Source of the DNA: an uncultured Thermoleophilia bacterium
GTDB lineage: Bacteria > Actinomycetota > Thermoleophilia > UBA2241
Assembly (NCBI GenBank): GCA_963715985.1
Contig: CAVQSP010000014.1
Span: forward strand, 320,001-384,000
Direction: 5' to 3'
Length of the DNA stretch: 64,000 nt
The translations under genes and the position numbers were made by a program. The notes beneath the pieces were generated by a model. It was not told the origin of the DNA and did not search any database. It saw only the letters and a list, made by a program, of their open reading frames with translations. This document shows positions 10,284 through 30,421 of the stretch, one piece after another. The number at the start of each line of letters is the position of its first letter. The first letter of the stretch is position 1.

Positions 10284-11258
10284 GTGTCGGAGCTCATCAC
10301 CCAGATGCAGGCCGCCCTGCGTGCCCGCCACTACAGCCGCCGCACCGAGCAGTCCCATTGCCGCTGGGTGCGTCGGTACATCCGCTTCCATGGCCTCAGG
10401 CACCCGGCCGGCATGGCCGAGCCGGAGATCAACGCCTTCGTCACCCATCTTGCGGTCGAGGACAAGGTCAGCGCCTCGACGCAGACGCAGGCGCTCTCCG
10501 CGATCCTCTTCCTCTACCGCCACGTGTTGCATCGGGAGGTCGGAAGACTCGCCGGCCTCGTCCGCGCGTACGAGTCCACGCACCTGCCCGTCGTCCTGAG
10601 CAGGGAGGAGGTCCGGGTGCTCCTAGACGAGCTCGAGCGCCGAGGCCCGGCCGGCTTCGAGGTCTGGCTCATCGCGTCCCTGCTCTACGGCGCAGGCTGC
10701 GCCTCAACGAGTGCCTGCGCCTGCGTGTGCTCGACCTCGACCTTGCGCGCGGCGAGCTCGTCGTGCGCGACGGCAAGGGCGGCAAGGACCGCGCCACGAC
10801 ACTGCCACGTGCCCTGGAACCGGCGCTGCGCGACCAGTTGCGCCACACGCGCGCCGTGCACGAGGCGGACCTCGCCGCCGGCTGGGGACGTGTCCAGCTC
10901 CCCGACGCCCTCGCGCGCAAATACCCGCGCGCCCCGGCCGAGTGGCGCTGGCAGTGGGTCTTTCCGCAGCAACGCCGCTGGATCGACCGCCGCACGGGGG
11001 ATCAGGGCCGTCACCACGTCCACCCGACCATCGTCCAGCGCGCCGTCCACGACGCCGTCCGGCGCGCCGGCATCGACAAGCACGCCACTTGCCACACCCT
11101 CCGCCACTCCTTCGCCACGCACATGCTCGAGACCGGCTACGACATGCGCACCATCCAGGAGCTCCTCGGCCACAAGGACGTCGGCACCACCATGATCTAC
11201 ACCCACGTCCTCCATGCGCGGCGGCCAGGGTGTGCGCAGCCCGCTCGACGCGCTGTGA
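10284..11258 (+). CDS. intI: Integron integrase IntI (apparent frameshifts at ~10695 and ~11215)
   Basis: [46 protein letters not shown], integron-specific insert [53 protein letters not shown], and GVRSPLD in a shifted frame. Confidence 0.95.
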
Positions 11259-11289
11259 TGACTCCCCCGCGCTCCTTGGCATCAGAGCA

Positions 11290-11306
11290 ATAAAGGTATA
11301 CTTTAT
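11290..11306. promoter_or_regulatory. Palindrome ATAAAG-GTATA-CTTTAT, probable BrnA operator/promoter
   Basis: AT-rich perfect 6-bp inverted repeat containing TATACT and abutting the brnT start. Confidence 0.55.
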
Positions 11307-11590
11307 GGAGAGTAAAGGGAGCGAGCCGCAGTTCGAGTTCGACGAGCGCAAGAGCCGCCTCAACAGCCTCAAGCACGGCATCGACTTCGTCGAGGCGCAG
11401 GCGCTCTGGCTGGATGAAGCGCTTCTCGAGGGTCGTGGTCGCGGAACGGGAGAGACCCGGCTTCTTATGATCGGACGGATCGAAGCGGAGACACTGGGCG
11501 GCGGTCATCACCTACCGGGGACCGTCCATCCGGATCATCTCGGTGCGGAGAGCACGCGCGAGGGAGATCGAGGCATATGAAGGCCAGTGA
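11305..11590 (+). CDS. brnT: BrnT-family toxin (apparent frameshift ~11490)
   Basis: FEFDERKSRLNSLKHGIDFVEAQALW, then HWAAVITYRGPSIRIISVRRAR in a shifted frame. Confidence 0.88.
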
Positions 11591-11813
11591 CTTCGACAAG
11601 AAGTTCGACGACGGCGTCGAGGACATCATCGACGACATCGACCCCACCAGCTGGAGGAGGCCCAACCGAGAGGTCAGGCGCGTGAACGTCGACTTCCCTG
11701 TGTGGATGGTCGAGTCGCTGGATCGCGAGGCCCAGCGACTGGGCGTCACCCGCCAGGCGGTCATCAAGGTCTGGATCGCCGAGCGCCTGGAGCAACAGGC
11801 GAAAGCGAGCTGA
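11577..11813 (+). CDS. brnA: BrnA-family (CopG/RHH) antitoxin
   Basis: MKASDFDKKFDDG...RRVNVDFPVWMVESLDREAQRLGVTRQAVIKVWIAERL; overlaps the toxin. Confidence 0.88.
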   Translation: MKASDFDKKFDDGVEDIIDDIDPTSWRRPNREVRRVNVDFPVWMVESLDREAQRLGVTRQAVIKVWIAERLEQQAKAS

Positions 11814-11879
11814 CCGGATCGCGCCTCACCCGCCTCTCGCAGTCTGCATATGCCACCCCTGCGAACTCGGTAGTACAGT

Positions 11880-11941
11880 CCTACGCAGAAGTCGGCAGGC
11901 TCACGCAAGCTCATACATGTACTGCCGAAAGCTTGTTAGCG
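11880..11941 (+). other. Candidate attI site, core GTTAGCG at 11935-11941
   Basis: GTT core not preceded by an attC hairpin, just before the first cassette; 6/7 complementary to the first cassette R'' (CCCTAAC). Confidence 0.5.
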
Positions 11942-12014
11942 GTACACCGGTCGTGAGGCCAATGTCCACCACTCGGGTGTTGCGCCCGCCGGGCGCACGG
12001 GGGAGACTGTCGAC

Positions 12015-12245
12015 ATGCGCACCACCGATCTCGAGATCGCCAAGCTCTCCCTCGCTGAGCGCATCCAGCTCGCCGAGGACCTCTGGGACAGCGTCGCCGC
12101 CGAGACCGGTGGGTTGCCGCTCACCGAGGCGCAGACGACGGAGCTCGACCACCGCCTCGCCCAGCTCGCCCGCGATCCTGAGGCCGGCGACCCCTGGGAG
12201 GTCGTGCGCGGGCGCATCCAGGAGCGCCTCGACAAGGCCGGATGA
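12015..12245 (+). CDS. Addiction-module antitoxin (TIGR02574-like)
   Basis: LSLAERIQLAEDLWDSV...ELDHRL...PWEVVR. Confidence 0.85.
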   Translation: MRTTDLEIAKLSLAERIQLAEDLWDSVAAETGGLPLTEAQTTELDHRLAQLARDPEAGDPWEVVRGRIQERLDKAG

Positions 12246-12544
12246 CCCTGCGCCTCGTCGTCCGCGCGGCCGCCGAGGCGGACGTCCTCGAAGCGGCACT
12301 CTGGTACGAACAGCGCTCCCCAGGTCTCGGCACAGAGTTCCTGCGCGCCGTCGACGTCACCCTCGCCGAGATCGCGCGCATGCCCGAACGCTTCCCGCTC
12401 GTCTACTGCGAGTCGCGCCGTGCGCTGCTGCGCCGCTTCCCGTATGGCGTCTTCTTCGTCGCCGCTCCCGATCTGGTCAGCGTGGTCGCCTTCATGCACG
12501 CGCGCCGCGACCCACGCCGCTGGGAGGAGCGCGTCGGTGGATGA
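12242..12544 (+). CDS. RelE/ParE-family toxin
   Basis: AEADVLEAALWYEQRSPGLG...RRALLRRFPYGVFF...HARRDP; ATGA overlap. Confidence 0.88.
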   Translation: MTLRLVVRAAAEADVLEAALWYEQRSPGLGTEFLRAVDVTLAEIARMPERFPLVYCESRRALLRRFPYGVFFVAAPDLVSVVAFMHARRDPRRWEERVGG

Positions 12545-12545
12545 C

Positions 12546-12633
12546 CCCTAACAAACGCATCAACCTGACGGCCACGAGCTACACTGCGGAAGTGAGGGTT
12601 GTTCGCCGCAGGCCTATGCGCAGCACGTTGGGC
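12546..12633 (+). repeat. attC site 1
   Basis: CCCTAAC..CGCATCAACCTG..CAGGCCTATGCG..GTTGGGC. Confidence 0.85.
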
Positions 12634-12654
12634 AAACACCGGTGGAGGTTGGTC

Positions 12655-13134
12655 GTGATCGGACGTCGTCTCCTCGCAGCCTGCGCCGTCGCACTTGCCT
12701 TGTGTGCCGTGCTGCTGCTTTCCGCCTGCGGCTCCGGCAGCGAAGCGACGCCAGGTCCGCAGCCCACTTACGGCACGGCACGCGAGACCGTGGTCGCCTT
12801 CTACGAGGCGCACGCCGAGGGCCGCGAGGCCGACGCCTACGCGCTGCTCTCCGATCTGCATGACCCCAGCCTGACGCTCGACCAGTACGTGGGCGAGACG
12901 CGCTGGCGGCGCGACCTGCAGCTGCAGGAGGTGGGCCCGGCCGAAGCCGAGAGCTCCGCAGGCCGTCCCGAGTACTACGAGAGCCTGCACGACCTGCGGG
13001 AGGTCATGGTCGAGTTCTACCAAGCGCACGACGCGGAGGCCCGCGAGAGCGGAGACGCGACCGAGTTCGTGACGGTCGCGCGGGAGAGCCCGGACGGCCC
13101 TTGGCGCATCGTCGAGATCGGTACGGGGCCGTGA
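12655..13134 (+). CDS. Lipoprotein, NTF2/DUF4829-like (cassette)
   Basis: Signal peptide with lipobox LSAC; ends PWRIVEIGTGP; RBS GGAGG. Confidence 0.7.
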   Translation: MIGRRLLAACAVALALCAVLLLSACGSGSEATPGPQPTYGTARETVVAFYEAHAEGREADAYALLSDLHDPSLTLDQYVGETRWRRDLQLQEVGPAEAESSAGRPEYYESLHDLREVMVEFYQAHDAEARESGDATEFVTVARESPDGPWRIVEIGTGP

Positions 13135-13152
13135 AGGGAGCGGTGGAGTGTT

Positions 13153-13239
13153 GCCCGACAAGCGGATCAAGCTGATTCGTCAAAGCGTCGCGGCAAGACG
13201 GAGCCGCGGCGCTCGCAGCTTATCCGCGGTGCGTTAGCC
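13153..13239 (+). repeat. attC site 2
   Basis: GCCCGAC..GCGGAT(C)AAGCTG..CAGCTTATCCGC..GTTAGCC, with the classic extrahelical base. Confidence 0.9.
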
Positions 13240-13281
13240 CGAACCGATTCTGTCCACACACCCGTAGGGAGACTTCTCGCA

Positions 13282-14028
13282 GTGGACATTCCACGGATAT
13301 TCAACATCACTGAGAGTGCTCACCGCATCCACAACCCGATCACACCCGAGAAGCTTGCCACTCTCGGCGCGGCGCTGCGTCTGGAATCGGGGGTCCGAGT
13401 GCTCGACCTCGGCAGCGGTTCGGGGGAGATGCTGTGCACCTGGGCGCGCGATCACGGCGTCATCGGCACCGGCATCGACATGAGCCGGTTGTTCACCGAG
13501 CAAGCGAGACTCCGTGCTGAAGAACTCGGCGTCGCCGATCAAGTCAAGTTCATCCATGGCGATGCTGCCGGCTATGTCTCTGACGAGAAGGCCGATGTGG
13601 CAGCCTGTGTCGGTGCCACTTGGATCGCTGGGGGAGTTGCCGGCACTATCGAGCTTCTGGCGCGGAGCCTGCGCACCGGAGGGATCATCCTCATCGGCGA
13701 GCCCTACTGGCGGCAGTTGCCGCCGACGGAAGATGTTGCCACGGGGTGTCTTGCCAACTCGATCTCCGACTTTCTCATGCTTCCAGGACTTCTCGCGTCT
13801 TTCGGCCACCTTGGCTACGACGTTGTTGAAATGGTTCTCGCTGACCAAGACGGCTGGGACAGATACGAGGCGGCCAAGTGGCTCACCATGCGCCGATGGC
13901 TTGAAGCCAATCCCGACGACGAGTTCGCGAAGGATGTTCGAGCCAAACTGACCTCGGAACCCGAGCGCTACGCCGCTTACACGCGCGAATACCTGGGCTG
14001 GGGTGTGTTCGCGCTGATGCCGCGGTGA
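13282..14028 (+). CDS. Class I SAM-dependent methyltransferase, YjhP-like (cassette)
   Basis: MDIPRIFNITESAHRIHNP, VLDLGSGSGEMLCTWA; visibly lower GC than flanks. Confidence 0.88.
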   Translation: MDIPRIFNITESAHRIHNPITPEKLATLGAALRLESGVRVLDLGSGSGEMLCTWARDHGVIGTGIDMSRLFTEQARLRAEELGVADQVKFIHGDAAGYVSDEKADVAACVGATWIAGGVAGTIELLARSLRTGGIILIGEPYWRQLPPTEDVATGCLANSISDFLMLPGLLASFGHLGYDVVEMVLADQDGWDRYEAAKWLTMRRWLEANPDDEFAKDVRAKLTSEPERYAAYTREYLGWGVFALMPR

Positions 14029-14108
14029 CGCGTTGGCGCATCCGGCGGATCGTCAACGTCCAAGGTCATTGGCGGTCGGCGTGGGCCCAGATTGGCTACA
14101 CGCGGTCG

Positions 14109-14193
14109 GGCTAACAGAGGCATCAACCTGACGGCCAGAAGGTAAACTGACCAGAAGGCGCCTGCGCCGCAGGTCATGCCTAACACGTTGGGC
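14109..14193 (+). repeat. attC site 3
   Basis: GGCTAAC..GGCAT(C)AACCTG(A)CGGC..GCCGCAGGTCATGCC..GTTGGGC. Confidence 0.9.
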
Positions 14194-14231
14194 ACATCAC
14201 GACGCGGCCACGGGCCACATCGCCTCTGTGT

Positions 14232-14729
14232 CTACGGTGTCTGGGCGCGCGCTTTGATGATCTCGATCGCGGCCTTGCCGGTCATGTGCTCGATGGCGAG
14301 CTCTATCACGCACACTCTCTTCCATTCGCCATCGATCTCGGAATCCGCCGCTTCGAGGTAGTCGGGAGAGTACTTCTTCGCGAGGGATTCGAGGGCGTGT
14401 CTCTTCTCACTGTCCTCTGTGAGGACCCTCGCCCTGCCGAAGACGATGGCACTTCGGAAGTGCGTGGTGAACGTGCTCTGCACAACGTCGTCTGCAGCTA
14501 TCACGCAGAACGAGGCCTTCTCGTTCCGCTCGATAGCATCGATCTTGTGGCCGGCCTTCGCAGAGTGAAGGAAGAGCTTGCCGTCTTCGTAGGCGAAGCT
14601 CAGGGGGACCGCATAGGGATAGTCGTCATCACCGTGTACCGCCAAGACCCCCGAGGTGCAGGACTGCAGCATGGCGATCGTTTCCGTCTCCGGGAGTTCT
14701 TGCCTCTTGCGCCTCATCCCTCTGAACAT
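14232..14729 (-). CDS. Nim-family 5-nitroimidazole reductase / PNPOx-like flavoprotein (inverted cassette)
   Basis: MFRGMRRKRQEL, YPYAVPLSF, HSAKAGHKIDAI, FTTHFRSAIVFGRAR, IEHMTGK. Confidence 0.85.
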   Translation of the reverse strand: MFRGMRRKRQELPETETIAMLQSCTSGVLAVHGDDDYPYAVPLSFAYEDGKLFLHSAKAGHKIDAIERNEKASFCVIAADDVVQSTFTTHFRSAIVFGRARVLTEDSEKRHALESLAKKYSPDYLEAADSEIDGEWKRVCVIELAIEHMTGKAAIEIIKARAQTP

Positions 14730-14847
14730 GGTGCTTCTCTCTCTTCCGTAGTACTGGCCAGTGGAGGCTGGCATCCGGGCGCGCAGCCACGTTCGACAGC
14801 TCACATACTAGCCGAAGCTGTGGCGCCCTGAGGGGGACTGAAGCGAC

Positions 14848-14937
14848 GCATGACAAGCGCATCGAGCAGATTGTTCCGCAGGCTATGATGTCGGCGACAG
14901 CGCAGCGAGCCAACTGCTCATGCGCGAAACGTCAGGC
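14848..14937 (+). repeat. attC site 4 (GAC/GTC)
   Basis: GCATGAC..GCGCAT(C)GAGCAG..CTGCTCATGCGC..GTCAGGC. Confidence 0.85.
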
Positions 14938-14950
14938 CCACGGAGTGCCG

Positions 14951-15730
14951 TTGAAGCGACCGCGTCTCATGGTCCACACTGTGGCCTCAGCCGATGGCCG
15001 GGTGTCGCTCGGCGCCAATCGTACGGGATTCGACGATGTTGGCGACGAGCGCTGGCAGGCGATCTGGGCTTCTGACACCAGCCTGGAGGAGAGTGTTCGC
15101 GCCCTCGTGTCTCGCTATCAGCCCCAGGTGCTGCTTGAGGGCAGCGGCTCGTTCGTAACGGAGGGCGCGAGTCTCTCGGAACTCCCTCCTGCGGAACTCG
15201 GCCCAGCGGAGCTGCATCGGGACTTCCTGCCCGGTGAGGTGGTGCACGCTCCGGACCACCGCGGATGGTTCGCGGTAGTGGATGGACGCGGGCGGATGCG
15301 GGCCGGGGTGAAGGAGTTCCCCGGTTGGGAGGGATGGCGCACGCTTCACCTCGTCTCCCATGCCACCCCGCCCGAGTACCTCGCCTTCCTCAGACGCTGT
15401 GGGATCCCCTACCTCATCGCGGGACGCGGGCATGTCGACCTCGAGCAGATCATGGCGAAGCTGAGGTCCCTCCTCGGCGTCAATTGCGTCGTTTGTACTG
15501 CCGGGAGCAGGCTGAACGGCGCTCTGCTGCGAGCGGGCCTGGTCGACGAGGTGAGCCTCGTGCTTCTGCCGGCGGTGATCGGGGGGTCCGAGACGCCGCA
15601 GCTGTTCCGCTGCGCTGAGCTGGGTCCTTCGGACTCGCCCACTCATCTCGAGTTGTTGTCCGTCGAGGGTGAATCCCAAGGGCGCGTCTGCCTCCGCTAT
15701 CGAGTCGTCGGAACGTCGAGCGAGGCCTGA
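14951..15730 (+). CDS. RibD C-terminal / DHFR-fold reductase (cassette)
   Basis: HTVASADGRV, GSRLNGALLRAGLVDEVSLVLLPAVIGG; stop lies in R'' of attC5. Confidence 0.85.
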   Translation: MKRPRLMVHTVASADGRVSLGANRTGFDDVGDERWQAIWASDTSLEESVRALVSRYQPQVLLEGSGSFVTEGASLSELPPAELGPAELHRDFLPGEVVHAPDHRGWFAVVDGRGRMRAGVKEFPGWEGWRTLHLVSHATPPEYLAFLRRCGIPYLIAGRGHVDLEQIMAKLRSLLGVNCVVCTAGSRLNGALLRAGLVDEVSLVLLPAVIGGSETPQLFRCAELGPSDSPTHLELLSVEGESQGRVCLRYRVVGTSSEA

Positions 15731-15814
15731 CAAGCGCATCAACCTGGCGCGTCTGGGCGCTGCGGTCGTATCCTCCGGCCGCAGCCCGTGCAGGTCATCC
15801 GCGGTGCGTTGGGC
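15725..15814 (+). repeat. attC site 5
   Basis: GCCTGAC..GCGCATCAACCTG..CAGGTCATCCGC..GTTGGGC. Confidence 0.88.
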
Positions 15815-15845
15815 AGAGCGGCGCATGGGTGAGGGTGAGAGGCGT

Positions 15846-16316
15846 ATGCGGACTCAGACGGTAAACGGCCCTTGGTGGGCGGCGCTCACCGTATGGGCCG
15901 TCGTCAACACCGTCAACCTGCTCCAGTCCGTCGGGTTCCTTTCAAGGATTCCGGCTGGCAGCATGGCGACCAACCAGCTGCTCGGCTACGTGATGATCGC
16001 CCTCGCGGCACCGGCGGGGCTCGCTCTCGTCGTGTTCTTGCGCGCTCGGGCAGGCTGGCTGCAATTGAGCGGCCCGATCGTCTACCTCGCCTTCGTCGCA
16101 CTGATGATCATCGTTGACTACGTCTCACCCATCGAGTGGCGATCTCCCGCGCGCTACGAGATCCTGGCGCCATATCTCCTGCTGTTCTTCGGGGCGATCT
16201 TGTTGATGGGCCTTCCCATGTACTGGCGTAGTCGCGCGTTCTGGATGGTGACGGTGGGGACTACTGTCCTATTGCTCGGTTCGATGGTACTCGCGTTGCG
16301 CGGAGGAGTGGGCTGA
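15846..16316 (+). CDS. Hypothetical membrane protein (cassette)
   Basis: About five hydrophobic helices; bounded by attC sites. Confidence 0.7.
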   Translation: MRTQTVNGPWWAALTVWAVVNTVNLLQSVGFLSRIPAGSMATNQLLGYVMIALAAPAGLALVVFLRARAGWLQLSGPIVYLAFVALMIIVDYVSPIEWRSPARYEILAPYLLLFFGAILLMGLPMYWRSRAFWMVTVGTTVLLLGSMVLALRGGVG

Positions 16317-16331
16317 TGCAGCCGGGCTCGC

Positions 16332-16416
16332 GCCTGACAAGGGCATCGAGCAGAATGCCAGAAGGCAGACTGACCTGAGAGGGTATCCGCGCCTGCTCAT
16401 GCCCAATACGTTGGGC
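16332..16416 (+). repeat. attC site 6
   Basis: GCCTGAC..GGGCAT(C)GAGCAG..CTGCTCATGCCC..GTTGGGC. Confidence 0.9.
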
Positions 16417-16490
16417 GTAGCAGGCTCGCAGCGTCTTCCACGGCCGAGGCGGGGTAGTATCCTTGTCGTGATGTCTTAGGGAGGTGAGTG

Positions 16491-16702
16491 ATGTCGGTCG
16501 TCTTTCGAATCGAGTTTGAGCGCGAGACGGACGGGCGCTGGATCGCCGAGGTAGTCGAGCTGCCTGGCGTGTTCGCCTACGGCGCGACCGAGGACGACGC
16601 CATCGCTCGCGTGCAGGCGCTGGCCCTGCGCGTCGTCGCTGACCGGCTCGAGAACGAGGAAGCCGGCGCGAGTATCGGAACATCTCCTTCGCCGCTGCGT
16701 GA
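16491..16702 (+). CDS. hicB: HicB-family antitoxin (apparent frameshift near the end)
   Basis: IEFERETDGRWIAEVVELPGVFAYGATEDDAIARVQALALRV. Confidence 0.85.
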
Positions 16703-16911
16703 GCGACTGGCTCAGCACGCGCGCCAACGCTCGTCCTCGCCGCCCTCCTGCGCATCGGCTGGACGGTCGAGCGACAGACCGGCTCACACAAGGTCCTCTC
16801 GCGCCCGGGCAGGCTCAAGCTCGTCTTCGCCTTCCACGACCGCGAGGGATCGGGCCGCGGATGCTCGCGCGCCACGCCAAGCACAGCGGCCTGAGGCCCG
16901 GGGACCTGTGA
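16699..16911 (+). CDS. hicA: HicA-family toxin (apparent frameshifts)
   Basis: VLAALLRIGWTVERQTGSHKVL..FAFHD..IGPRMLAR..KHSGLRPGDL across frames. Confidence 0.8.
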   Translation: MSDWLSTRANARPRRPPAHRLDGRATDRLTQGPLAPGQAQARLRLPRPRGIGPRMLARHAKHSGLRPGDL

Positions 16912-16921
16912 GAGTGAGCAC

Positions 16922-17009
16922 GCCCAACCAAGCGCATCGTGCAGAACGCCACGGGGTCTGCCGCACGGCGACAGGCACGCCGCGTCTGCCCATGCGCGAT
17001 GCGTCGGGC
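16922..17009 (+). repeat. attC site 7
   Basis: GCCCAAC..GCGCATCGTGCAGA..TCTGCCCATGCGC..GTCGGGC. Confidence 0.8.
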
Positions 17010-17079
17010 ATCACGAGCCGCGTCAACGGTTGCTCACAGTCAGCCGTGGTAGCGGGCCACAGCACCAAGGAGAGCCCTC

Positions 17080-17475
17080 ATGACAGTCGATCGCGAGAAG
17101 GTCAGCAGGATGGCTGCAGCCTACACGGCGGCCTGGAATTCCGGCTCACCAGACGCCGTTGCGTCCTTCTATGCTCCAGATGGGCAGATCGTCATCAATC
17201 GCGGTCAGCCGTGGGTCGATCGCAAAGGCATCTCTGAAATGGCCGCGGGCTTCTTCGCCGACGTGCCAGATCTTCAGTTGACGTGCGACGAGGTGCGTTG
17301 TGCTGGCGATCATGTCGCGTATTTCTGGACCTTTGCCGGGACACACGCAGCCACGAAGAATCCACTTCGAGTCGTCGGCTGGGAAGAGTGGGATCTCGAT
17401 GCCGACTTGAAGGTCATTGCATCGCGGGGTTGGTACGACTCCGCCGACTACGAACGGCAGACCACGGCCAGATAG
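17080..17475 (+). CDS. SnoaL/NTF2-like protein (cassette)
   Basis: YTAAWNSGSPDAVASFYAPDG, WTFAGTH, GWEEW, SRGWYDSADYERQ. Confidence 0.85.
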   Translation: MTVDREKVSRMAAAYTAAWNSGSPDAVASFYAPDGQIVINRGQPWVDRKGISEMAAGFFADVPDLQLTCDEVRCAGDHVAYFWTFAGTHAATKNPLRVVGWEEWDLDADLKVIASRGWYDSADYERQTTAR

Positions 17476-17577
17476 ATGAAGGGCGTTCCCGGCATGGACT
17501 GCATCAATCCCTACGGCGGATCGTAGTAACGCAGAACGCCGCAGAACATCATGACAGCGCGCTCTTGAGGATGTGAT

Positions 17578-17620
17578 GCCCAACCACTCGGTCAAGCGGA
17601 CCCGCCTGCGGCAGTCCGTC
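17578..17620 (+). repeat. Truncated attC (left half only), divergent family
   Basis: GCCCAAC-CACTC-GGTCAAGCGGACCCGCCTGCGGCAGTCCG, with no matching L'/R' arm. Confidence 0.6.
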
Positions 17621-17635
17621 CGCCGGACCGCAGAC

Positions 17636-17962
17636 ATGTCGAAGGACAGTCTTCCGCCAGGCTCACCGTGGAGACCCCATCGTCGTAGGCAGCGCGTAGG
17701 CATGAGACTGTGGCTGGGCTATCTCCCCGGCGTCATCGTGCTCGGTTGGCCACTCTCGAGGGCGCTTGGATCCGGGCTCGCGTACCTGGCCGTTGCACTG
17801 GCCTGGATGGCAGCGGGCCTGCTCGTCCAGTTCTGGGCAGGGTCCTTTCGCTGCCCTCGATGCGGGAACCCCTTCTACCGGAACGGGGGTATCAGGGCTC
17901 GTGGGCACGCAGGTGTGCTCATTGCGGCCTCCTCATATGGGCTGAGTGTCGAGAATGCCTGA
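17636..17962 (+). CDS. Small membrane protein with CPRC zinc-ribbon motif (cassette; possible frameshift)
   Basis: Two TM helices then FRCPRCGNPF; a second CAHC motif in a shifted frame. Confidence 0.55.
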   Translation: MSKDSLPPGSPWRPHRRRQRVGMRLWLGYLPGVIVLGWPLSRALGSGLAYLAVALAWMAAGLLVQFWAGSFRCPRCGNPFYRNGGIRARGHAGVLIAASSYGLSVENA

Positions 17963-18043: not shown

Positions 18044-18112
18044 ACAGCCTTCTCCACTGGTGGCGTGGGTGCGTTAGTGGTACCGTTCCCAGTAGCATAG
18101 GAGGTAGCGTCA

Positions 18113-18773: not shown

Positions 18774-18786
18774 CGAACTCCGGAGA

Positions 18787-21869: not shown

Positions 21870-22814
21870 AGTCCTGTTCACCGTCACTGCCACGTTGCCC
21901 CGCTTGTGCCCAAGCTCCACGTACCTGTGGGCGGCGACGATCTGGTCGAACGCATAGCACCTGTCGTTGACCGGTGTGATCCGCCGCGCTTCCACGAGTC
22001 CTCTCACCTTGTCGAGGCGCTGGGAGCTCAACTCGAGGGACCCATCGTCGATCGAGACGAACGTGCCGCCGTCCGCAAGCGCTCGCCGGCACGCCTCCTT
22101 GAGCGCGGATGTCCTTCGCTTTCCGACCGCGTCGAGCACGACGTCGTACCGTTCCAGCTCTGACAGCGACTGCTCGTCGGTGTAGTCCAGCACTCGGTCT
22201 GCTCCCAGCGCGGTCACGAAGCGAGCATTGCGTGCGCTGCACACACCAGTGACGTCGGCACCGAGATGCTTCGCGTACTGCACCGCGATCGTCCCCGCGG
22301 TGCCGGACGCCCCGTACACGAGCACCTTCTGGTTCGGTCTGACGCCGGCCTTGTCGAGATACTGCAACGCCAGCAGACCACCGTACGCGGCCGAGGTAGC
22401 TTCTTCGTGGCTGGTGTTGGCCGGCTTCAGCGCGATGCAGCCCTGCTTCGAGTCGTCTTCCTTCATGCACTTGTAGTCTGCATACGCGCCGAGAGAGAAG
22501 CCGGTGAGGCCGAAGACCTGATCGCCGGCCTTGAAGCGCCTCGTCCTCGCGCCCACCTGCACGACTTCTCCGGAGAGCACCTCACCGATGATGGGGTGCC
22601 TCGGCCTGGTGATGCCGAGCATCAGGCGCATCGGAATGCGGAAGCGCAGTGGGATCTGCGAGCCCCTGATGAAGAGGTCGCTGTTCGTCACCGAGGTGGC
22701 GTAGATCTTGATCAGGACTTCGTCGTCTCTTGGCACGGGCCTCTCGTACTCCACGATCTTCAGCACGTCGGGAGGGCCGTACTTCGTACAGGCGATAGCC
22801 TTCATGGTCTCCAT
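21864..22814 (-). CDS. NAD(P)-dependent MDR-family (quinone oxidoreductase-like) dehydrogenase
   Basis: MKAIACTKYGPPDVL, VLVYGASGTAG, GADRVLDYT, AHRYVELGHKRGNV. Confidence 0.9.
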   Translation of the reverse strand: METMKAIACTKYGPPDVLKIVEYERPVPRDDEVLIKIYATSVTNSDLFIRGSQIPLRFRIPMRLMLGITRPRHPIIGEVLSGEVVQVGARTRRFKAGDQVFGLTGFSLGAYADYKCMKEDDSKQGCIALKPANTSHEEATSAAYGGLLALQYLDKAGVRPNQKVLVYGASGTAGTIAVQYAKHLGADVTGVCSARNARFVTALGADRVLDYTDEQSLSELERYDVVLDAVGKRRTSALKEACRRALADGGTFVSIDDGSLELSSQRLDKVRGLVEARRITPVNDRCYAFDQIVAAHRYVELGHKRGNVAVTVNRTA

Positions 22815-22841
22815 GGATACTCCTTCGTGATGCGGTAGCTG

Positions 22842-23574
22842 CTAGCTCGCAGGGCTCGGGTCGGTCAGGCAGGGTGCTCCGGAGTCGACGAGCCTTCACG
22901 CCCCTCACGAGGAGCCACAGCGACAGCCCCACTTCGGCGACGAAGCTCACGACGAGCCCGGGAGAGGTGATCGCGGGGTGGGCCGGCAGTAGCAGGGCCT
23001 GAACGAACCAGATCAGGACGGCGATCCCGTCAAGCAGCAGAAGGACGCCCAGGAACCGGGGAAGGTAGCCGGACTTGTAGACCAGGTAGCCGAGCGGGAA
23101 CAGCCACGTGCCGAAGAACAGCTGGGCGGTGACGAAGCCCGTCTTGTACACGTTGATGGACAGGTACCCCAGCCCCTCCAGCTGGGCCGCCGAGTAGGCC
23201 TGCATGTGACTGCCCGCGTCGCCCATCAGGAGCGCGGAGAGCAGCGGGAACATGCTCGCGCACTGTATGGCGACACCGACCGTGTTGAGCAGGAGGAAGA
23301 GCAGCGCCAGATGCTTGTTGACCGGTCGCAGAAGGACGTAGAGACCCCAGGCGGCCATGAGGAAGAGGAACGCCGAGATCAGCCCGACGACAAGAGCCAG
23401 GCGGAAGGATGATGGGTTCGTGACGACCGACTGGTAGACCTGCTGCGCGCTGCCCAGCCCGATGTGCCCCAGCCTGTCGGCGAGCACGGACGTCAGGATG
23501 AACGCGAGGTAGCAGCCGCCCGTGATCCTGGCCAGCCTGTCCGGCGCCAGGCGATCTGTGATGCTGTGGGACAT
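22842..23574 (-). CDS. DUF4386-family membrane protein (3' end approximate)
   Basis: ARITGGCYL, LYVLLRPVNK, FFGTWLFPLGYLVYKSGYLPRFLG, LWLLVRGV. Confidence 0.85.
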
Positions 23575-23609
23575 TGCGGTCCCTCCTCTTCTGTCGTTCG
23601 ACGTGCGGA

Positions 23610-23924
23610 TCACGAGATGCTCGCTGACGGCTTGGCGCCCGTCTCTTTCCGAGCGGCGGTGGCGTTGGAGTGGGGAGTCCTGGGGCACGGGGCCCGTGCG
23701 ACGGAGAGCAGCGGCACGCCCAGATCGCGGATCCTCCTCAGCAGGCCATGCAGGGCGGCCTGATCGGCTACCGGTCCGCTGAGGAGCGTCGTGCCGTCCT
23801 CTTTCGGCGTGACGGTCAGGCCCTCGAACCAGTCTGACCATTCGCGGTCGAGATGGCCTTCGATCCTGATCTCGTAGATCGTCGGCTGCCCTGGATCAGG
23901 TTGGGGATCAGGTGTGCTCGGCAT
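23610..23924 (-). CDS. Small conserved protein typically found next to MalT-like LuxR regulators
   Basis: YEIRIEGHLDREWSDWFEGLTV..GPVADQAALHGLLRRIRDLGVPLLSV. Confidence 0.8.
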   Translation of the reverse strand: MPSTPDPQPDPGQPTIYEIRIEGHLDREWSDWFEGLTVTPKEDGTTLLSGPVADQAALHGLLRRIRDLGVPLLSVARAPCPRTPHSNATAARKETGAKPSASIS

Positions 23925-24019
23925 CGGCCTGTGTCCGTTCTCGCGGGTGATGACGGTGCGTGCCACCAGCTCGGTGTACGGGCAGGCTAGGCGTGCCGGA
24001 GTGCCTGCGGTAGACACTT

Positions 24020-24055
24020 CGGTGTGGGTCGGAGTGTTGTTCTGAGTGTTGTTCT
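24020..24055 (-). promoter_or_regulatory. 12-bp tandem repeat AGAACAACACTC x2 plus a degenerate third copy; candidate regulator sites
   Basis: GAGTGTTGTTCT at 24032 and 24044, between the regulator and its downstream operon. Confidence 0.5.
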
Positions 24056-24106
24056 GGGGTGATGAGGAGCGGAGCGCGGAGGCCGGCGGGGCGCGGGGGG
24101 CTGCGT

Positions 24107-26780
24107 CTACAGCAGGCCCAGCTCCCCGGCGCGGGCGACGGCCTCGGTGCGCCGCTGCACGTTGAGCTTCTCGAAGATGCGGCGGTTGTGGCCCTTGACC
24201 GTGTCCAGGGCCAGGAAGAGCCGCTGGCCGATCTCCCGATTCGAGAGGCCTTGGGCGATCAGCCGCAGGACTTCGAGCTCGCGTTGGCTGAGCGGCTCGG
24301 CCGACGACGAAGGACCGGGAGCGGGGGATGCCGGAGCGGAGGCTGCCGGTCGTCCGCCCTTCGTCTCCCGCCGGAAGGCGGCCAGGAGCCGGCCTACGTA
24401 GTCCGGCCGGATACCCTGCGCGGCCGCCGCGGACAGGAGCTCCGCCATCGGAGCCCCTTCATCCACGAAGAGACGGATGAAGCCGCCGGGCTCGGCCAGC
24501 GCCAGCGCCTCGCCCAACGAGTGCGCCGCCGCGCCCTCGTCCGCCCCGCCCTCTTCCTCGAGCGCGTGCTGGGCAACGGCTTGCAGCACTAGCGTCCTCA
24601 GCCGTTCGTCCGCCCAGCCCTGGGCCTGCAGGCGCTGGCCCAAGGGTCCCAGCACCGCCAGCGCTGCGCCCGGATCGCCCTGGGCGATGAGCACGCGCGC
24701 CTGGCTGTGCGGGAGGTCGTACTGCCCGGCAAGTCGAGCGGCAGCGGCGACCTGGTCCTGTCTGATCAAGATGAGGACCTGCGCGGCGGCGATCTCCGGC
24801 AGCCGCATGATGAAGGCGTTGTCCTGCGCGGATCGTTGCGCCTCGGCCAGCATCGTCGCCGCGCCCTCCGCATCGCCCCGGGCCAGTGCCACGCGGGCGA
24901 GGAAGACGTCGCCGGCGATGGATCGGTCGATCGCGCGGTCGTAGAGCCGGGCCAGATCCCGGCTCTGCTGCGCGTGCCGTTCGGCGGCATCCAGGTCGTC
25001 CCACTCGTAGGAGATGGAGGCCAGGCTGAGATGCGCTTCCTCGACGTTCGGCAGCGGCTGGTCGCCGGCGAGCTCCAGCACTCGCCGGTAGCTCTCGGCC
25101 GCCTGGTGGAGCTGGTTGTCCAGCTCCTGCACCTTGCCCAGGGCCTCGGACGCCAGCATCCTCGAGAACACGTGCCCGGATCTCTCGGCGAGCTCGACAC
25201 ACTCCCGGCAGGCGCGAGCGGCGGCCGACCCGATCGCCCCCAAAGAGCTGGGCGTACGTCGCCGCCCACGCGGCGGTGAAGCGGAAGGGCAGGTTCTCGG
25301 GGCGCAGGTACTCCTGGGCACGACGTGCCTGGGCGGCCATCGTCTGGACGTCGTAGCGGGTGAACGCCAGGGTGGCCCTGGCACAGGCTATCTGCCCGAT
25401 CAGGTCGCGGACCTCCTCGTCGAGGTCAACGCCCTGCAGCGCCTGCTCGGCCGCCTGCAGCTTCTCCTCGACCCCCGTCGTCTGCGCGGCCATCAACGTC
25501 ACCGTGGCGGAGCGCACCAGCAGCCGGGGTCGTGCCTCGAGCACCGCTCCTGGGAGGGAGGCCAGCCAGTCCAGGATGGGCATCAACACGCTGCGCAGAT
25601 GCAGGTCCATGTCCGAGCTGTCGATGAGACGCTCCGCGCGCTCCACGTCGTCGGCTGCCGTCGCGTGCTGGAAGGCCTCGAGGAGCCGGCCCTCGCGCTC
25701 GTACCATTCACTGGCCCGGAGGTGCAGGTCGGCGATCTCCTCCGCCGAGGCACTCTGCCCCAGCCGGCGCTGCAGCAGGTCGCCGAAGAGATGGTGGTAG
25801 CGGAACCAGCGCCGTTCGTCGTCCAGAGGGATGATGAACAGGTTCGCGCGCTCTATGGCCCGCAGGGTCTCATCGCTCGCGCCGGCCGGGGCGCGCAGGA
25901 GCGCGTCGCACAAGGGGCCGCACAGGCGGTCGAGGACGGACGTGCGCAGCAAGAACGTCTGGACCTCGGCGGGCTGTCGCTGCAGGACCTCCTCGAGCAG
26001 GTAGTCCAGCACGAAGCGGTGGCTCCCGGTGAAGGAGCGGATGAAGCCGGCGGCATCCGGGAGTCCCTGGAGGGAGATGGCCGCCATCTGCAGTCCGGCG
26101 ATCCAGCCCTCGGTGCGGGTCTCCAACGCCTCGATGTCGTCTGCTGAGAGGTCGAGACCCGCCGCCCGCTTGAGGAACTCGGTGGCTTCAGCGGGCGTGA
26201 ACCGCAGGTCGGCGGCGCGCAGCTCGGTCAGCTGGCCGCGGGCGCGCAGCCGGGCGAGGGGCAGACGTGGGTCCTCGCGGGTGGCGATGACGAGATGCAT
26301 CCGCGGCGGCAGGTGCTCGAGCAGAAACGCGAGGGCCTCGTCGTCCGGCCTGGAATCGAGCACATGGTAGTCGTCCAGGATGAGCACGAAGTCGTCGGGG
26401 ACGGTGCTGAGCTCATTGACGATGGTCGTGAGGATCGACTCGATCGGCGGCGGCTGAGGCGACTGGAGCGCGACCATCACCCCGCTGCCGATCTCCGGTG
26501 CGATCGTCCGCGAGGCGGCGACGAGGTAGGTCAGGAAACTCGAGGGATCGTCATCTCTCTGATCGAGCGACAGCCAGGCGACCGGTCGCCCACACCCGAC
26601 GGCCCATTCGGCGACCAGTGTGGTCTTGCCGAAGCCCGCGGGTGCAGAGACGAGGGTCAGCTGCCCGTGCGTGCCCTCGTTCAGCCGCTCCATCAAGCGG
26701 GGGCGGGCGACTACGCCGGGCCGAGGCGGCGGGACGTACAGCTTCGTCAAGAGAAGTGGGGCAGGCGCTCCGTTGGTCAC
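24107..26780 (-). CDS. MalT-like STAND ATPase / LuxR-HTH transcriptional regulator (apparent frameshift ~25235)
   Basis: LLTKLYVPP, APAGFGKTT, LILDDYH, TEGWIAGLQ, WFRYHHLF, C-terminal LSQRELEVLRLIAQGLSNREI. Confidence 0.92.
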
Positions 26781-26945
26781 AGCCGCTCCAGGAGCCGAGT
26801 CACGGCAAACTCAGGACCAGTCTATCCGTTCCTGCCTTGCCGTTCCCTCCGAGTAGGCGGAGCGCGCCCATCCCCGGACGGTGGGGATAGCGTATCGTTC
26901 CACTTCAGGAAGGGCCATGTTGCAGGTGGTCTCTGGATTCGCGCT

Positions 26946-27032
26946 ACCTGACGATCGCGTCAACCTCGCGCGGCCCAGCGCCGCGATACACTGCGGTCGC
27001 AGCGCGCGCAGGTCTTGCGCTGCACGTTGGAC
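26946..27032 (+). repeat. attC site 16
   Basis: ACCTGAC..CGCGTCAACCTCGCGCG..CGCGCGCAGGTCTTGCG..GTTGGAC. Confidence 0.75.
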
Positions 27033-27062
27033 CGACATCACAGGAGACGCATCGGGGGGACC

Positions 27063-28034
27063 ATGAAGGCAGTCGTGCAGACCGAGTACGGCACGCCGGA
27101 CGTCATGCGGCTCGCGGACGTCGACACTCCCTCAGTCCGCGAGAACGAAGTCCTCGTGCGCGTTCGTGCCGCCTCCGTGAACCCGCCGGACTGGGCCGGA
27201 GTGCATGGCGCGCCGTACATCGTCCGCCTGGCCTTCGGGCTGCGCAGGCCCAAGCTCGGCATCCGCGGCACCGACCTGGCGGGCACAGTCGAGGCGCTCG
27301 GCGCGAACGTGACACGGCTGTCTGTCGGTGACGAGGTCTTCGGCGTCGGCGTCGGCACCTTCGCGGAGTATGCGGTCGCAAAGGAAGAGCACCTCGCGCC
27401 GAAGCCGGCCGGCATCACGTTCGAACAGGCTGCAGCCACGGGGATGGCCGCATTGACCGCGCTCCAGGCGCTGCGTGACGCCGGTCGCATCCGGGCGGGA
27501 CAGAAGGTGCTCATCGTCGGCGCCGGCGGCGGGATCGGCACGTTCGCCGTCCAGATCGCGAAGTCCTTTGGCGCGCACGTGACCGGCGTCTGCAGCACGT
27601 CGAAGCAGGAGCTGGTCCGCTCGCTCGGCGCCGACAACGTCATCGACTACACGGCGGAGGACTTCACGCAGGGCGGAGAACGCTACGACCTCATCTTCGA
27701 CAATGTGCTGCGACACTCGCTGTCCGAGCTCCTGCGTGCGCTCAATCGCAGCGGCACACTCGTGCCCAACGGCGGTCAGTTCTACAAGCGCTGGTTCGGG
27801 AGCGTCGGTGTCCTCATGGTCAAGGCGCCGCTGCTCTCGCTGTTCGTGCCGCAGCGGATCCGCGTGTGCACGGAGCGCCCAAGGCAGGACGATCTGCTCG
27901 TTCTGAAGCAACTCATCGAGTCCGGGAAGCTGATGCCGGTCGTCGGCCGGACGTACCGTCTGGACCAGGCCGGCGAAGCCATCTCCCACTTCGGGGAGGG
28001 GCACGCAGAGGGCAAGGTCGTCATCACTCCCTGA
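27063..28034 (+). CDS. NAD(P)-dependent MDR-family dehydrogenase (cassette)
   Basis: MKAVVQTEYGTPDV, AASVNPPDW, VLIVGAGGGIGTFAVQIAK, GHAEGKVVI. Confidence 0.9.
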   Translation: MKAVVQTEYGTPDVMRLADVDTPSVRENEVLVRVRAASVNPPDWAGVHGAPYIVRLAFGLRRPKLGIRGTDLAGTVEALGANVTRLSVGDEVFGVGVGTFAEYAVAKEEHLAPKPAGITFEQAAATGMAALTALQALRDAGRIRAGQKVLIVGAGGGIGTFAVQIAKSFGAHVTGVCSTSKQELVRSLGADNVIDYTAEDFTQGGERYDLIFDNVLRHSLSELLRALNRSGTLVPNGGQFYKRWFGSVGVLMVKAPLLSLFVPQRIRVCTERPRQDDLLVLKQLIESGKLMPVVGRTYRLDQAGEAISHFGEGHAEGKVVITP

Positions 28035-28058
28035 GGCTGGGGAGCGGACCCGCCTGCG

Positions 28059-28147
28059 GTCCAGCAAGCGCATCGACCCGACGTGCCCAAGCCTTCTGTA
28101 GTGACCTCAGACCGCAGCCCGCTCAGGCCATGCGCGGTGCGATAGAC
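28059..28147 (+). repeat. attC site 17 (degenerate)
   Basis: GTCCAGC AAGCGCATCGACC..CAGGCCATGCGCGGTGC GATAGAC. Confidence 0.7.
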
Positions 28148-28174
28148 CGCCCACTCAAGCCAGACGACTCGCCC

Positions 28175-28570
28175 TCAGCTCGCGGCCTTGCGCACGATGG
28201 CGGCGAGCTTGGCCTCGGTCGCGTCGTCCAGCGCGGTGAAGAACCAGGCCGATTCACGGAGCTGGTGCGGCGCGCCCTCCTCGAGGCTGAGGTTCGCCTT
28301 GTCGGTGAGGCCGAACGTCATGTATGTGTCCGCGCGGAAGAAGCAGACGACCGGACCGTCCTTCGCGTACGCCGGCATGCCGTACCACGTGGTCGCCTGC
28401 AGAACGGGCGCGCTGCGCAGGACGAGTGCGTGGAGACGCTCGCCCATGGCGCCGTAGGGTTCCGGCATCGCGGCGATCTTCGCGAGCGCTGCAGCCTCGC
28501 TGTCACCCTTCTTCACAGCCGGCTTCGCGGCCTTCTTCCTCGCCTCTTTGCCCGCCTTGTTCTCAGCCAT
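28175..28570 (-). CDS. DUF1801-family protein (inverted cassette)
   Basis: ALAKIAAMPEP, TWYGMPAYAKDG, YMTFG. Confidence 0.82.
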   Translation of the reverse strand: MAENKAGKEARKKAAKPAVKKGDSEAAALAKIAAMPEPYGAMGERLHALVLRSAPVLQATTWYGMPAYAKDGPVVCFFRADTYMTFGLTDKANLSLEEGAPHQLRESAWFFTALDDATEAKLAAIVRKAAS

Positions 28571-28733
28571 TGCTACTCCCGCTTCCGGTGTCTTGTCGTT
28601 GGGGCTCCAAGTCCGGTTGCCGCTCGGACCCGCGATCGGGGTCGCGGCATCTCACGGAGCTCGTATGTGATACCCGCACGGCTCGGTGGCCAAGAGCACC
28701 GCTCGCCCGGAGGCTCGCGGCACGCCGGTGGCC

Positions 28734-28816
28734 GTCCGACAGGCGCATCGAGCGGACGGCGCACGCTACACTGGTCCCATCGCGCGTGAGCGCCGCTCAT
28801 CCGTGGTGCGTTCGAC
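28734..28816 (+). repeat. attC site 18
   Basis: GTCCGAC..GCGCAT(C)GAGCGG(A)CG..CGCCGCTCATCCG..GTTCGAC. Confidence 0.8.
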
Positions 28817-28847
28817 AGACCCAAGACCCTCGGCAGGAGAGGACTCC

Positions 28848-29835
28848 GTGTCCGTTCAGCCTGACATCCATCGCCACGTGTGCGTCTTCGGCGTCGGCGG
28901 CGTCGGCGGCTACTTCGGCGGCCGACTCGCGTGGTGGCTGGCGAGTCAGACTGCTCCGACCTGGCACGTCCATTTCGTCGCGCGTGGCGCGCATCTGGCC
29001 GCGATCGACAGTCGCGGTCTTGAGCTGGACACTCCCGGCGCGCGGCTGACGTGCGTGCCTGCTTCTGCGTCTTCGGACATGAAGCGCTTGCCCGTTCCCG
29101 ACGTGGTGCTGCTGTGCGTCAAGGGCTACGGCCTGGACGAGGCGCTGCGGCAGATCGCCGCCCACTGCGGCGAGGACGCCGTGGTCATCCCGCTGCTGAA
29201 CGGCGTGGACATCCACGAGAGGATCCGCGTTCATCTCCCCAAGGCTCGCGTGCTTCCCGCGTGCGTCTTCGTCGGCACTCACGTGGACCGGCCCGGGGTC
29301 GTCTCACAGGCGGGCGGCGACGGGGTCATCGTCCTCGGCGGCGACCCCGATGACCCTGACTTCGTGCCGGTGTCGTTCCTCTCGCTGCTCGAAGATGCCG
29401 GCATCCGTTTCACCTGGTTCGACGACCCCCGCCCCGCGATCTGGGAGAAGTACGTGTTCATCTCGGCGCTTCGGGCTGGTGACCGCCGCTTCGCGGAAGA
29501 CCCTCGGCGCTGTCCTCACAGACGCCCGTCTCCTCGAGGATGCTCGCGAGATCATGCGCGAGGTCGCCAGTCTCGCGGTTCGCGAGGGTGTCGTTCTCGA
29601 TCCCGAAGTCGTCTCCACTGCCGTGGCCAAGGCACGTGGATTCCCCTTCGAGACAAAGACGTCGTTTCAGCGAGACGTGGAGTCGGGGGGCCAGGACGAA
29701 GGTGACCTGTTCGGGGGTACGATCCTTCGTCTGGGGAGGCGGCACGGGGTGCCCACCCCGACGACACAGCGCGTCTACGCTCAGGTGCGTGAGGGCGCAA
29801 CAGGGGCACTCTCGGCCGAGCGCAGCTCCGGGTAG
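28848..29835 (+). CDS. panE: 2-dehydropantoate 2-reductase family (apparent frameshift ~29470)
   Basis: GVGGVGGYFG, LCVKGY, PLLNGVD, IWEKYVF, KTSFQRD. Confidence 0.85.
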
Positions 29836-29892
29836 AATCCGCACATGGCGGTGACCCCCACGTGTCATAGGCCTCGGGACCAAGGAAGAGAA

Positions 29893-30297
29893 ATGGGCGT
29901 GAAGAAGAGCGGATCGCAGGAGAGCACGTCTCCTTCGCAGCTGATAGACGCGAGGATCAAGGAGCTGGGCGACTGGCGTGGCGAGATGCTCGGCCGGCTC
30001 CGCACCTTGGTCAAGGAGGCCGATCCCGAGATCATCGAGGAGTGGAAGTGGAGAGGAGTCCCGGTCTGGTACCACGACGGGATGGTCTGCACCGGCGAGA
30101 CCTACAAGGACCATGTGAAGATGACCTTCGCCAAGGGCGCGGCTCTGGAGGATCCTTCGGGTCTCTTCAACTCCGGTCTCGACGGGAACGTCAGGCGGGC
30201 CATCGACTTCCATGAGGGCGAGCAGATAGACGAGCAGGCGTTGAAGACTCTCGTTCGCGCCGCCGTCACTCTGAACAAGTCCACAGCCCGAAGCTGA
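29893..30297 (+). CDS. DUF1801-family protein
   Basis: LIDARIKELGDWRGE, EEWKWRGVPVW, MTFAKGAAL, RRAIDFHEG. Confidence 0.88.
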   Translation: MGVKKSGSQESTSPSQLIDARIKELGDWRGEMLGRLRTLVKEADPEIIEEWKWRGVPVWYHDGMVCTGETYKDHVKMTFAKGAALEDPSGLFNSGLDGNVRRAIDFHEGEQIDEQALKTLVRAAVTLNKSTARS

Positions 30298-30337
30298 TCC
30301 ACGGACTGGCGATAGGCCGCAAGGCCCGCCCATTGAC

Positions 30338-30421
30338 GCCTGACAAGCGCCTCGCGCGGGCGGCCGGAGCCTGAAGCCACCTGTAGGCGCGTAGGCCGCC
30401 GTCAAGGCACTCGCGTCCGAC
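30338..30421 (+). repeat. attC site 19 (highly degenerate; last in the array)
   Basis: GCCTGAC AAGCGC..GTCCGAC; same length class, weak arms. Confidence 0.5.

Follow-up and report, generated by a model that had tools for sequence, protein, structure and literature searches.

In a 64-kb stretch of DNA from an uncultured Thermoleophilia bacterium (G000:C14:320001-384000, within an 810-kb contig of the 4.35-Mb bin G000), hereafter the window, we found an integron in which an integrase gene, intI, is followed by a candidate attI site and an array of 18 gene cassettes with attC recombination sites. It very probably belongs to the sedentary chromosomal kind with inverted-integrase layout and is native to a lineage of Thermoleophilia (Actinomycetota). 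The layout and the type of mechanism are already known, and what is new is where the integron sits. A full platform with its own attC and attI sites occupies a fixed locus that about half the species in one genus and family share, and the interest lies in this reach into the phylum and not in a new mechanism.

The intI gene lies on the plus strand, in the same orientation as the cassettes, and the array stands downstream of its 3' end; the first-pass annotation did not mention this known inverted type. The NCBIfam model TIGR02249 matched it in two pieces, at 10296-10697 (profile positions 2-129, 135-138 bits) and 10697-11242 (profile positions 130-311, 272.7-275 bits). The second piece alone is above the cut-off of 265, and Xer models scored far below TIGR02249. 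The ALARKYP stretch of the integron-specific additional domain is present inside the second piece, in agreement with the first-pass annotation, made from the DNA alone, which had named an IntI with an integron-specific insert. In an alignment with seven intact congener proteins, all catalytic motifs are retained within the three frame pieces into which the translation falls in the assembly. Residues 8-319 of a congener IntI align end to end with PDB 2a3v, the Vibrio IntI4 structure (E = 5.4e-90). The gene is the only integron integrase gene in genome G000. Its GTG start sits in a G+C-rich inverted repeat (10255-10290) that follows the stop codon of pntB.

Candidate attC sites were collected by repeat finding and fuzzy matching, and a covariance model was built from the resulting 18 sites, which lie between 12546 and 30421, all on the plus strand, measure 83-91 nt and score 52.4-86 bits. 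When the whole window was searched with filters off, the model returned exactly these 18, the next match being at 17.5 bits, a gap of 35 bits. The scores are partly circular because the same 18 sites built the model; independent support comes from the loci of relatives, with 159 matches in 13 of the 14 loci searched, and from covariation in the hairpin. A structure obtained with RNAalifold from the raw alignment (12 pairs, -2.06 kcal/mol) was replaced by a hand-set structure tested by pair counts. In this hairpin of 23 modelled pairs, 82.2% of the cells were paired, versus 26.7-41.5% when the partners were slid by 1-3 columns. Thirteen of the 23 pairs had changed on both sides, and the observed covariation score was reached by 0 of 500 shuffles. 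The covariance search, the covariation and the fixed unpaired columns together bear out the 18 attC hairpins of 83-91 bp with extrahelical bases that had been described in the first pass.

The extrahelical bases of attC sites are G and T. In our alignment, the unpaired columns on the 5' arm of the plus strand hold C in all 18 sites and A in 14 of them, and in single-site folds of the minus strand the unpaired bases read G and T on the 3' arm. We therefore took the plus strand to be the top strand, which is consistent with the plus-strand open reading frames (ORFs) found in 15 of the 18 cassettes. The sites end in GTTRRRY-type boxes with fixed unpaired positions, and the spacer is asymmetric in the alignment (2 nt versus 5 nt). 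Extrahelical bases, an unpaired central spacer and a variable loop are given as attC features in the accessible part of PMC12614218.

In an alignment of the DNA behind intI from the window and 11 loci of the same genus, a conserved element of about 100 nt ending in GTT(A/G)G was found in 11 of the 12 sequences (the window and 10 of the 11 congener loci; it was not found in L025), and the sequences diverge directly after this motif. Contig C11 of the bin carries another copy of cassette 1, 98.8% identical over 644 nt from 11932 on and unrelated upstream. Because that copy begins there, the proposed crossover point also marks where a duplicated cassette physically ends. On this comparative evidence, the element is a candidate attI site next to intI at which cassettes would enter. 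A brnT/brnA toxin-antitoxin pair stands between intI and this site. Behind intI, L025 has the same pair and L030 a related brnT-like stretch; given this position, in the window and in relatives, we did not regard the pair as a cassette.

Comparison with other arrays shows that the cassettes are mobile units, with turnover both between species and within genome G000. Sequence 86-95% identical to cassette 3 occurs at different positions in the arrays of L021, L027, L031, L044, L057, L032 and L022, while cassettes 9 and 10 are the first cassettes of L023 and L026, respectively. We also placed Logan contigs on 8800-28799 at 90% likeness, using four metagenome runs from wetlands, and two joints fell inside attC sites, connecting cassette 10 to 13 (19437 to 20752) and cassette 13 to 3 (21265 to 13209). 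Within the genome, the attC model gave 6 further matches outside the array at E up to 1, 4 of which score at least 45 bits; C11, C20 and other parts of C14 carry further sites of the family. The cluster on C11 (G000:C11:614328-615748) comprises two cassettes and no integron integrase gene. Its first cassette is the 98.8% copy of the Unstab_antitox/ParE cassette 1, followed by an attC of 70.7 bits, and the second holds a MazE/MazF-like pair, named from the ORF sequences alone, followed by an attC of 45.3 bits. This cluster lies just downstream of a fragment resembling the C terminus of a tyrosine recombinase. In the four wetland runs, the summed contig depth was about 660-5400 over 12802-14135 and about 0.1-560 elsewhere in the stretch; cassette 3 (13158-14191, SAM methyltransferase) or a close relative is very abundant in those samples.

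The same slot is occupied in relatives. The genes pntA and pntB stand directly upstream of intI in at least eight same-genus loci, and beyond the arrays come the major facilitator superfamily (MFS) and cytidylate kinase-like (CMK)/BON genes in L032 and transaldolase in L025, L030 and L031. As relatives share both the pntB-intI junction and the right-hand genes, the junctions in the window are not assembly chimeras. The relatives' arrays comprise 4 to 29 attC matches in 11 stretches of 14-20 kb. The shared fixed location, the long array and the homogeneous attC sites point to a sedentary chromosomal integron. The first-pass annotation had placed the unit between pntB and an MFS/pentose-phosphate block with no insertion sequence or transposon, and this position stands, with pntB on the left, the MFS, CMK-BON and transaldolase genes on the right, and no transposase family match among the ORFs scanned. 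It had also suggested looking for intI beside pntB in sister genomes, and at least eight such cases exist, with the same attC family and with cassettes shared at other positions.

IntI was found in 26 of the 49 other species of the genus and in 43 of the 79 genomes of the host family. In a sample of the host class, 53 of 401 genomes (G000 included) had an IntI above the cut-off, concentrated in two families; the second of these had it in 12 of 61 genomes, and four other families had none in 28-79 genomes each. An even sample of the phylum gave 24 of 401 genomes (G000 and the unpublished G480 and G541 included), from about 10 families. We searched one genome per species with the alignment of the seven intact congener IntIs, which yielded at least 509 relatives. 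Seven loci with the same pntB-intI unit, whose IntI is 77-100% identical to the same-genus query protein, are labelled Thermoleophilia bacterium (L033, L035, L036, L038 and L069), Actinomycetota (L034) or Deltaproteobacteria (L037), and the IntI of L076, labelled Actinomycetes, is 71% identical.

In a quick, unrooted maximum likelihood tree of the window IntI and the best 80 of the at least 509 relatives, from which we inferred no direction of transfer, the window IntI groups in a 19-row clade that has 95% support in the Shimodaira-Hasegawa-like approximate likelihood ratio test (SH-aLRT), and 17 of the 19 are labelled Actinomycetota. Such labels are carried by 40 of these best 80 (18 Thermoleophilia, 11 Coriobacteriia, 7 Actinomycetes and 4 unclassified), and the label changes 7 times on the tree versus 25.9 times in shuffles. 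The attC model gave 191 matches in the 80 related loci, all on the intI strand and downstream of intI, which shows that the whole clade has the inverted-integrase layout. Matches of at least 50 bits occurred in 26 loci, of which 24 are labelled Actinomycetota, the exceptions being L037 and L056; in the other loci with non-actinobacterial labels the best match was 37.1 bits, a comparison limited by the short flanks of many loci. The IntI tree had been proposed in the first pass, together with a Thermoleophilia-like host and a native, long-resident integron. Both proposals are upheld, the host by the Thermoleophilia labels on the same-locus relatives and by the Zwf protein of the window, whose nearest clusters are mostly Actinomycetota, and the residency by the slot shared with eight congeners, the spread of IntI through the genus and its mostly actinobacterial clade.

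Several observations count against an intact integron resident in this host. The host genome is a bin (22 contigs, 88.8% completeness) with 7.3% contamination. The metagenome joints inside attC sites were placed at 90% likeness, and their source may be other species. The top and bottom strands of the attC sites fold equally well (mean -20.2 versus -19.7 kcal/mol), so the choice of strand rests solely on the position of the unpaired bases; wobble counts (31 for top versus 25 for bottom) gave no strand discrimination. Single-site fold energies were not better than those of shuffles for most sites (z from -3.4 to +1.5, in DNA of 67% G+C). Since energies are uninformative here, the structural case rests on covariation and the fixed bulges. 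The first-pass reading depended on the repeats folding as attC sites, and the covarying hairpin agrees with that, whereas energies alone do not separate the repeats from shuffles. A sigma-70 consensus scan of 10100-12700, which does not model actinobacterial promoters, gave 0 matches, and no cassette promoter Pc was found with it. No LexA-box-like motif was found near intI (20 matches versus 15.7 expected, none before intI). Finally, intI is not one open frame in the assembly, no metagenome contig was seen covering about 10695, and intI is interrupted in 6 of the 14 relatives' loci, by an in-frame TAG in L022 and L009 and by frame changes in L029, L030, L031 and L032.

These interruptions raise the question of whether intI is a true pseudogene in an otherwise real integron, in which case the array would be a decaying relic and the attC cluster would be rearranged only by an integrase from elsewhere. 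We regard this as unlikely, though it deserves consideration. The gene has two frame changes, near 10695 and at 11215, and is the sole intI of the genome, but intact congeners read through both places, and seven of the 14 relatives' loci have an intact intI of 318-331 amino acids. The frame pieces retain all catalytic motifs. Similar single-base changes break brnT, the genome's only pntB and several cassette genes (hicA, one parE and the MalT-type gene), and independent contigs differ from the assembly by one letter at such places: a contig of run X4 has one extra letter at 16847, exactly at the hicA break, and contigs of runs X2, X3 and X4 have one letter fewer at 25223 in the MalT-type gene. 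Within intI, a contig of run X3 lacks the extra letter at 11215 and then reads like the intact congeners. Contig cover is low over about 10134-10800, which includes the first frame change. Because of the X3 contig and the similar indels in pntB and several cassette genes, assembly error is likelier than decay, and the two intI frameshifts are most likely consensus errors of the assembly. A substitution in a relative speaks for decay: the otherwise intact intI of G004 (L027:3034-3987) encodes MIHTHVL where MIYTHVL is found elsewhere, with histidine at the position of the catalytic tyrosine. The first-pass term "complete" integron accordingly fits the presence of intI, a candidate attI and 18 attC sites, but not the state of intI, which is read in three frame pieces. 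A metagenome joint from 10205 to 11224 was considered as an intI-less allele and rejected, having only 25 letters on its shorter side.

It is very improbable that the integron is not actinobacterial at all, through either a chimeric or misbinned contig or a recent horizontal arrival from a Gram-negative donor. IntI relatives of 63-70% identity exist in many phyla, and L037 and L056 share the attC family under non-actinobacterial labels; yet housekeeping genes stand on both sides of the integron within an 810-kb contig, the pntB-intI junction recurs in eight other species with the same right-hand genes after the arrays, IntI is present in about half of the genus within a clade mostly labelled Actinomycetota, and the same attC family is found on two other large contigs of the bin. 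The contamination of the bin would fit a foreign origin, as would the G+C content, which is 66.8% in the integron compared with 71.6% for its flanks and 70.0% genome-wide. The integron thus lies about 5 points below its flanks and is not fully GC-matched; the first-pass annotation had spoken of a GC-matched intI. We give almost no credence to the repeats being intergenic palindromes, either terminators or of the repetitive extragenic palindromic type, beside an Xer-like recombinase gene, since despite their shuffle-like hairpin energies the recombinase passes the integron-specific model and not the Xer models, the 18 co-oriented repeats regularly border either one small ORF or a toxin-antitoxin pair and have fixed unpaired positions and GTTRRRY-type ends, the model gives just the 6 further matches elsewhere in the genome, and the same ORF-plus-repeat units stand in other orders in relatives.

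Under the preferred reading of a native sedentary integron, and from the known mechanism of the family, IntI would be a tyrosine recombinase with an integron-specific extra domain that binds attC folded as a single-stranded hairpin of the bottom (here minus) strand and recognizes its two flipped-out bases. Circular cassettes would be inserted at attI just downstream of intI and excised by attC x attC recombination. We infer recombination activity in this strain. More broadly, and with less assurance, we think it probable that whole Thermoleophilia families, and several other uncultured Actinomycetota lineages as well, have long inherited integrons vertically, with a phylum-specific lineage of IntI, attC and attI. 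The textbook absence of integrons from Actinomycetota would then be an artefact that arose because cultured genomes were sampled, and recombination of single-stranded attC would work in high-G+C actinobacterial cells. The loci offer material for studying integron recombination in high-G+C actinobacteria, what restricts integrons in the cultured classes, and the functions of the cassettes.

Boucher et al. are said to have described, in 2007, inverted-integrase integrons in Treponema and other Spirochaetota, Planctomycetota, Chlorobi and Cyanobacteria. Like these, the window integron has intI and attC on one strand and its array beyond the 3' end of intI; it differs in host phylum, in its own attC family and its own attI element, and in the brnT/brnA pair between intI and attI in some members. 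The accessible part of PMC13323075 defines the inverted-integrase type, and that of 10.1101/2022.02.06.479319 mentions the reverse orientation in Spirochaetota. Like the superintegron of Vibrio cholerae (VchIntIA/IntI4, with VCR sites), the integron is sedentary and chromosomal, its attC sites are homogeneous and lineage-specific, and it has many cassettes with toxin-antitoxin pairs, but its array is far smaller (18 cassettes), with G+C-rich sites of about 87 nt. In Vibrio, intI and the array are divergently oriented. Class 1 mobile integrons (IntI1, Tn402) have the same recombinase family and cassette logic, and to our knowledge they are the only integrons usually reported from Actinobacteria, for example, Corynebacterium. 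The window integron is not one of them: the class 1 model NF011946 scored 107.2 and 204.9 bits for the two intI pieces versus a cut-off of 435, the integron occupies a fixed chromosomal slot, and no transposition, qac or sul family was found among the ORFs scanned. The C11 cluster resembles clusters of attC sites lacking integron integrases (CALIN) and attG-type secondary insertions in having two attC cassettes without an integrase, the first beginning at GTT; it differs in lying outside the window, as a by-product of the integron described here. The attG sites are mentioned in the accessible part of PMC12614218.

The first-pass annotation had called integrons essentially absent from Actinobacteria. 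This agrees with the accessible part of the IntegronFinder 2.0 paper (PMC9024848), in which no RefSeq complete genome of Actinobacteria had a complete integron and the gap is called intriguing, but it does not hold for the phylum sample above, in which 24 of 401 genomes have IntI. About 0.2 integron-type recombinases per Actinomycetota genome are given, and termed a virtual absence, in the accessible text of PMC13323075 (2026). A review (PMC8618304), as far as its accessible text goes, lists Actinobacteriota among the phyla with integrons detected, with no details. We found no literature description of a chromosomal integron in Thermoleophilia or other Actinomycetota, in a search that left outside the supplementary tables of surveys, which possibly list such integrons.

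The 18 cassettes measure 535-1605 bp, apart from one of 5163 bp (Table 1), and together hold 27 ORFs with a coding signal or a Pfam match. The first-pass count of about 28 cassette genes is close to this, with brnT and brnA now standing outside, before attI. Four cassettes carry toxin-antitoxin pairs (Unstab_antitox/ParE, HicB-like/HicA and two Phd/ParE); a fifth pair lies before attI. The small enzymes encoded include an S-adenosylmethionine (SAM) methyltransferase and PNPOx-like, RibD_C, SnoaL-like, dienelactone hydrolase, C_GCAxxG_C_C and PEMT/ICMT-like proteins, as well as two Zn-dehydrogenase family proteins and one ketopantoate reductase-like protein. The remainder comprises two DUF1801 proteins, along with several small ORFs that are of membrane type or unknown. 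No drug-resistance family was matched among the cassette ORFs scanned.

Table 1. Features of the integron and its flanks (positions in the window)
Feature	Position	Strand	Details
pntB (left flank)	8823-10205	+	three pieces, two frame changes in assembly; NF006974 at 8823-9119, 9161-9286, 9270-10184
intI, integron integrase	10284-11258	+	GTG start; TIGR02249 in two pieces; single-base frame changes near 10695 and at 11215
brnT-like toxin (frameshifted) and ribbon-helix-helix (RHH) antitoxin (brnA)	11305-11813	+	PF04365 E 1.3e-8; PF01402 E 7.9e-4 (weak)
Candidate attI	11850-11939	+	conserved element ending GTTAG (11935-11939); proposed crossover G11935/T11936
Cassette 1	11936-12633	+	Unstab_antitox (PF09720 E 7.5e-16) and ParE (PF05016 E 2.2e-5)
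attC1	12546-12633	+	60.9 bits
Cassettes 2-3	12634-14193	+	putative lipoprotein 12592-13134; SAM methyltransferase 13282-14028, Methyltransf_31 E 1.7e-11
attC2	13153-13239	+	83.1 bits
attC3	14109-14193	+	71.4 bits
Cassettes 4-7	14194-17009	+	PNPOx-like 14235-14804 (minus); RibD_C 14885-15730; 170-aa membrane ORF; HicB-like and HicA (frameshifted)
attC4	14848-14937	+	63.2 bits
attC5	15725-15814	+	80.8 bits
attC6	16332-16416	+	75 bits
attC7	16923-17009	+	65.8 bits
Cassettes 8-11	17010-20036	+	SnoaL-like and 129-aa ORF; Phd/YefM and ParE (frameshifted); dienelactone hydrolase; 122-aa membrane ORF
attC8	17957-18043	+	63.4 bits
attC9	18686-18773	+	54.2 bits
attC10	19411-19501	+	74.9 bits
attC11	19947-20036	+	59.6 bits
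Cassettes 12-14	20037-21869	+	Phd/YefM and intact ParE; C_GCAxxG_C_C protein; PEMT/ICMT-like methyltransferase
attC12	20693-20782	+	73 bits
attC13	21238-21324	+	86 bits
attC14	21780-21869	+	68.1 bits
Long unit	21870-27032	genes minus	Zn-dependent alcohol dehydrogenase (ADH), DUF4386, 135-aa ORF, MalT/LuxR-type regulator (frameshifted near 25223)
attC15	26946-27032	+	
Cassettes 16-18	27033-30421	+	quinone oxidoreductase; DUF1801 (minus); ketopantoate reductase-like and DUF1801
attC16	28059-28147	+	77.3 bits
attC17	28734-28816	+	65 bits
attC18	30338-30421	+	52.4 bits
Right flank: MFS transporter, CMK/BON protein, small ORF, transaldolase	30426-34379	+	Pfam

The long unit has no attC within the 5.1 kb of 21870-26945, where no model match exceeded 14 bits. 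An inserted transposon was considered for this stretch and rejected, as there is no transposase family match and no inverted attC. In L023, its ADH and DUF4386 genes occur on the forward strand, with an attC site on either side. A regulator related to the MalT/LuxR-type gene lies beyond the last attC match in L027, on the other strand.

On the left flank, pntB is the sole copy in the genome and its two frame changes are about 130 nt apart; the frames of pntA and the small pntA-B subunit upstream are open. The window contains no tRNA genes, and its sole match in an Rfam scan was a bacterial RNase P RNA class A at 41503-41891 (273.2 bits). Elsewhere in the genome, two Xer-like recombinase matches, at G000:C14:806210-810018 and G000:C20:58555-62376, had near-identical scores (66.8 bits; 61.3 versus 61.4 bits). 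The bin may therefore hold a duplicated stretch, one copy being at the end of C14 and the other on C20, in line with its contamination estimate.

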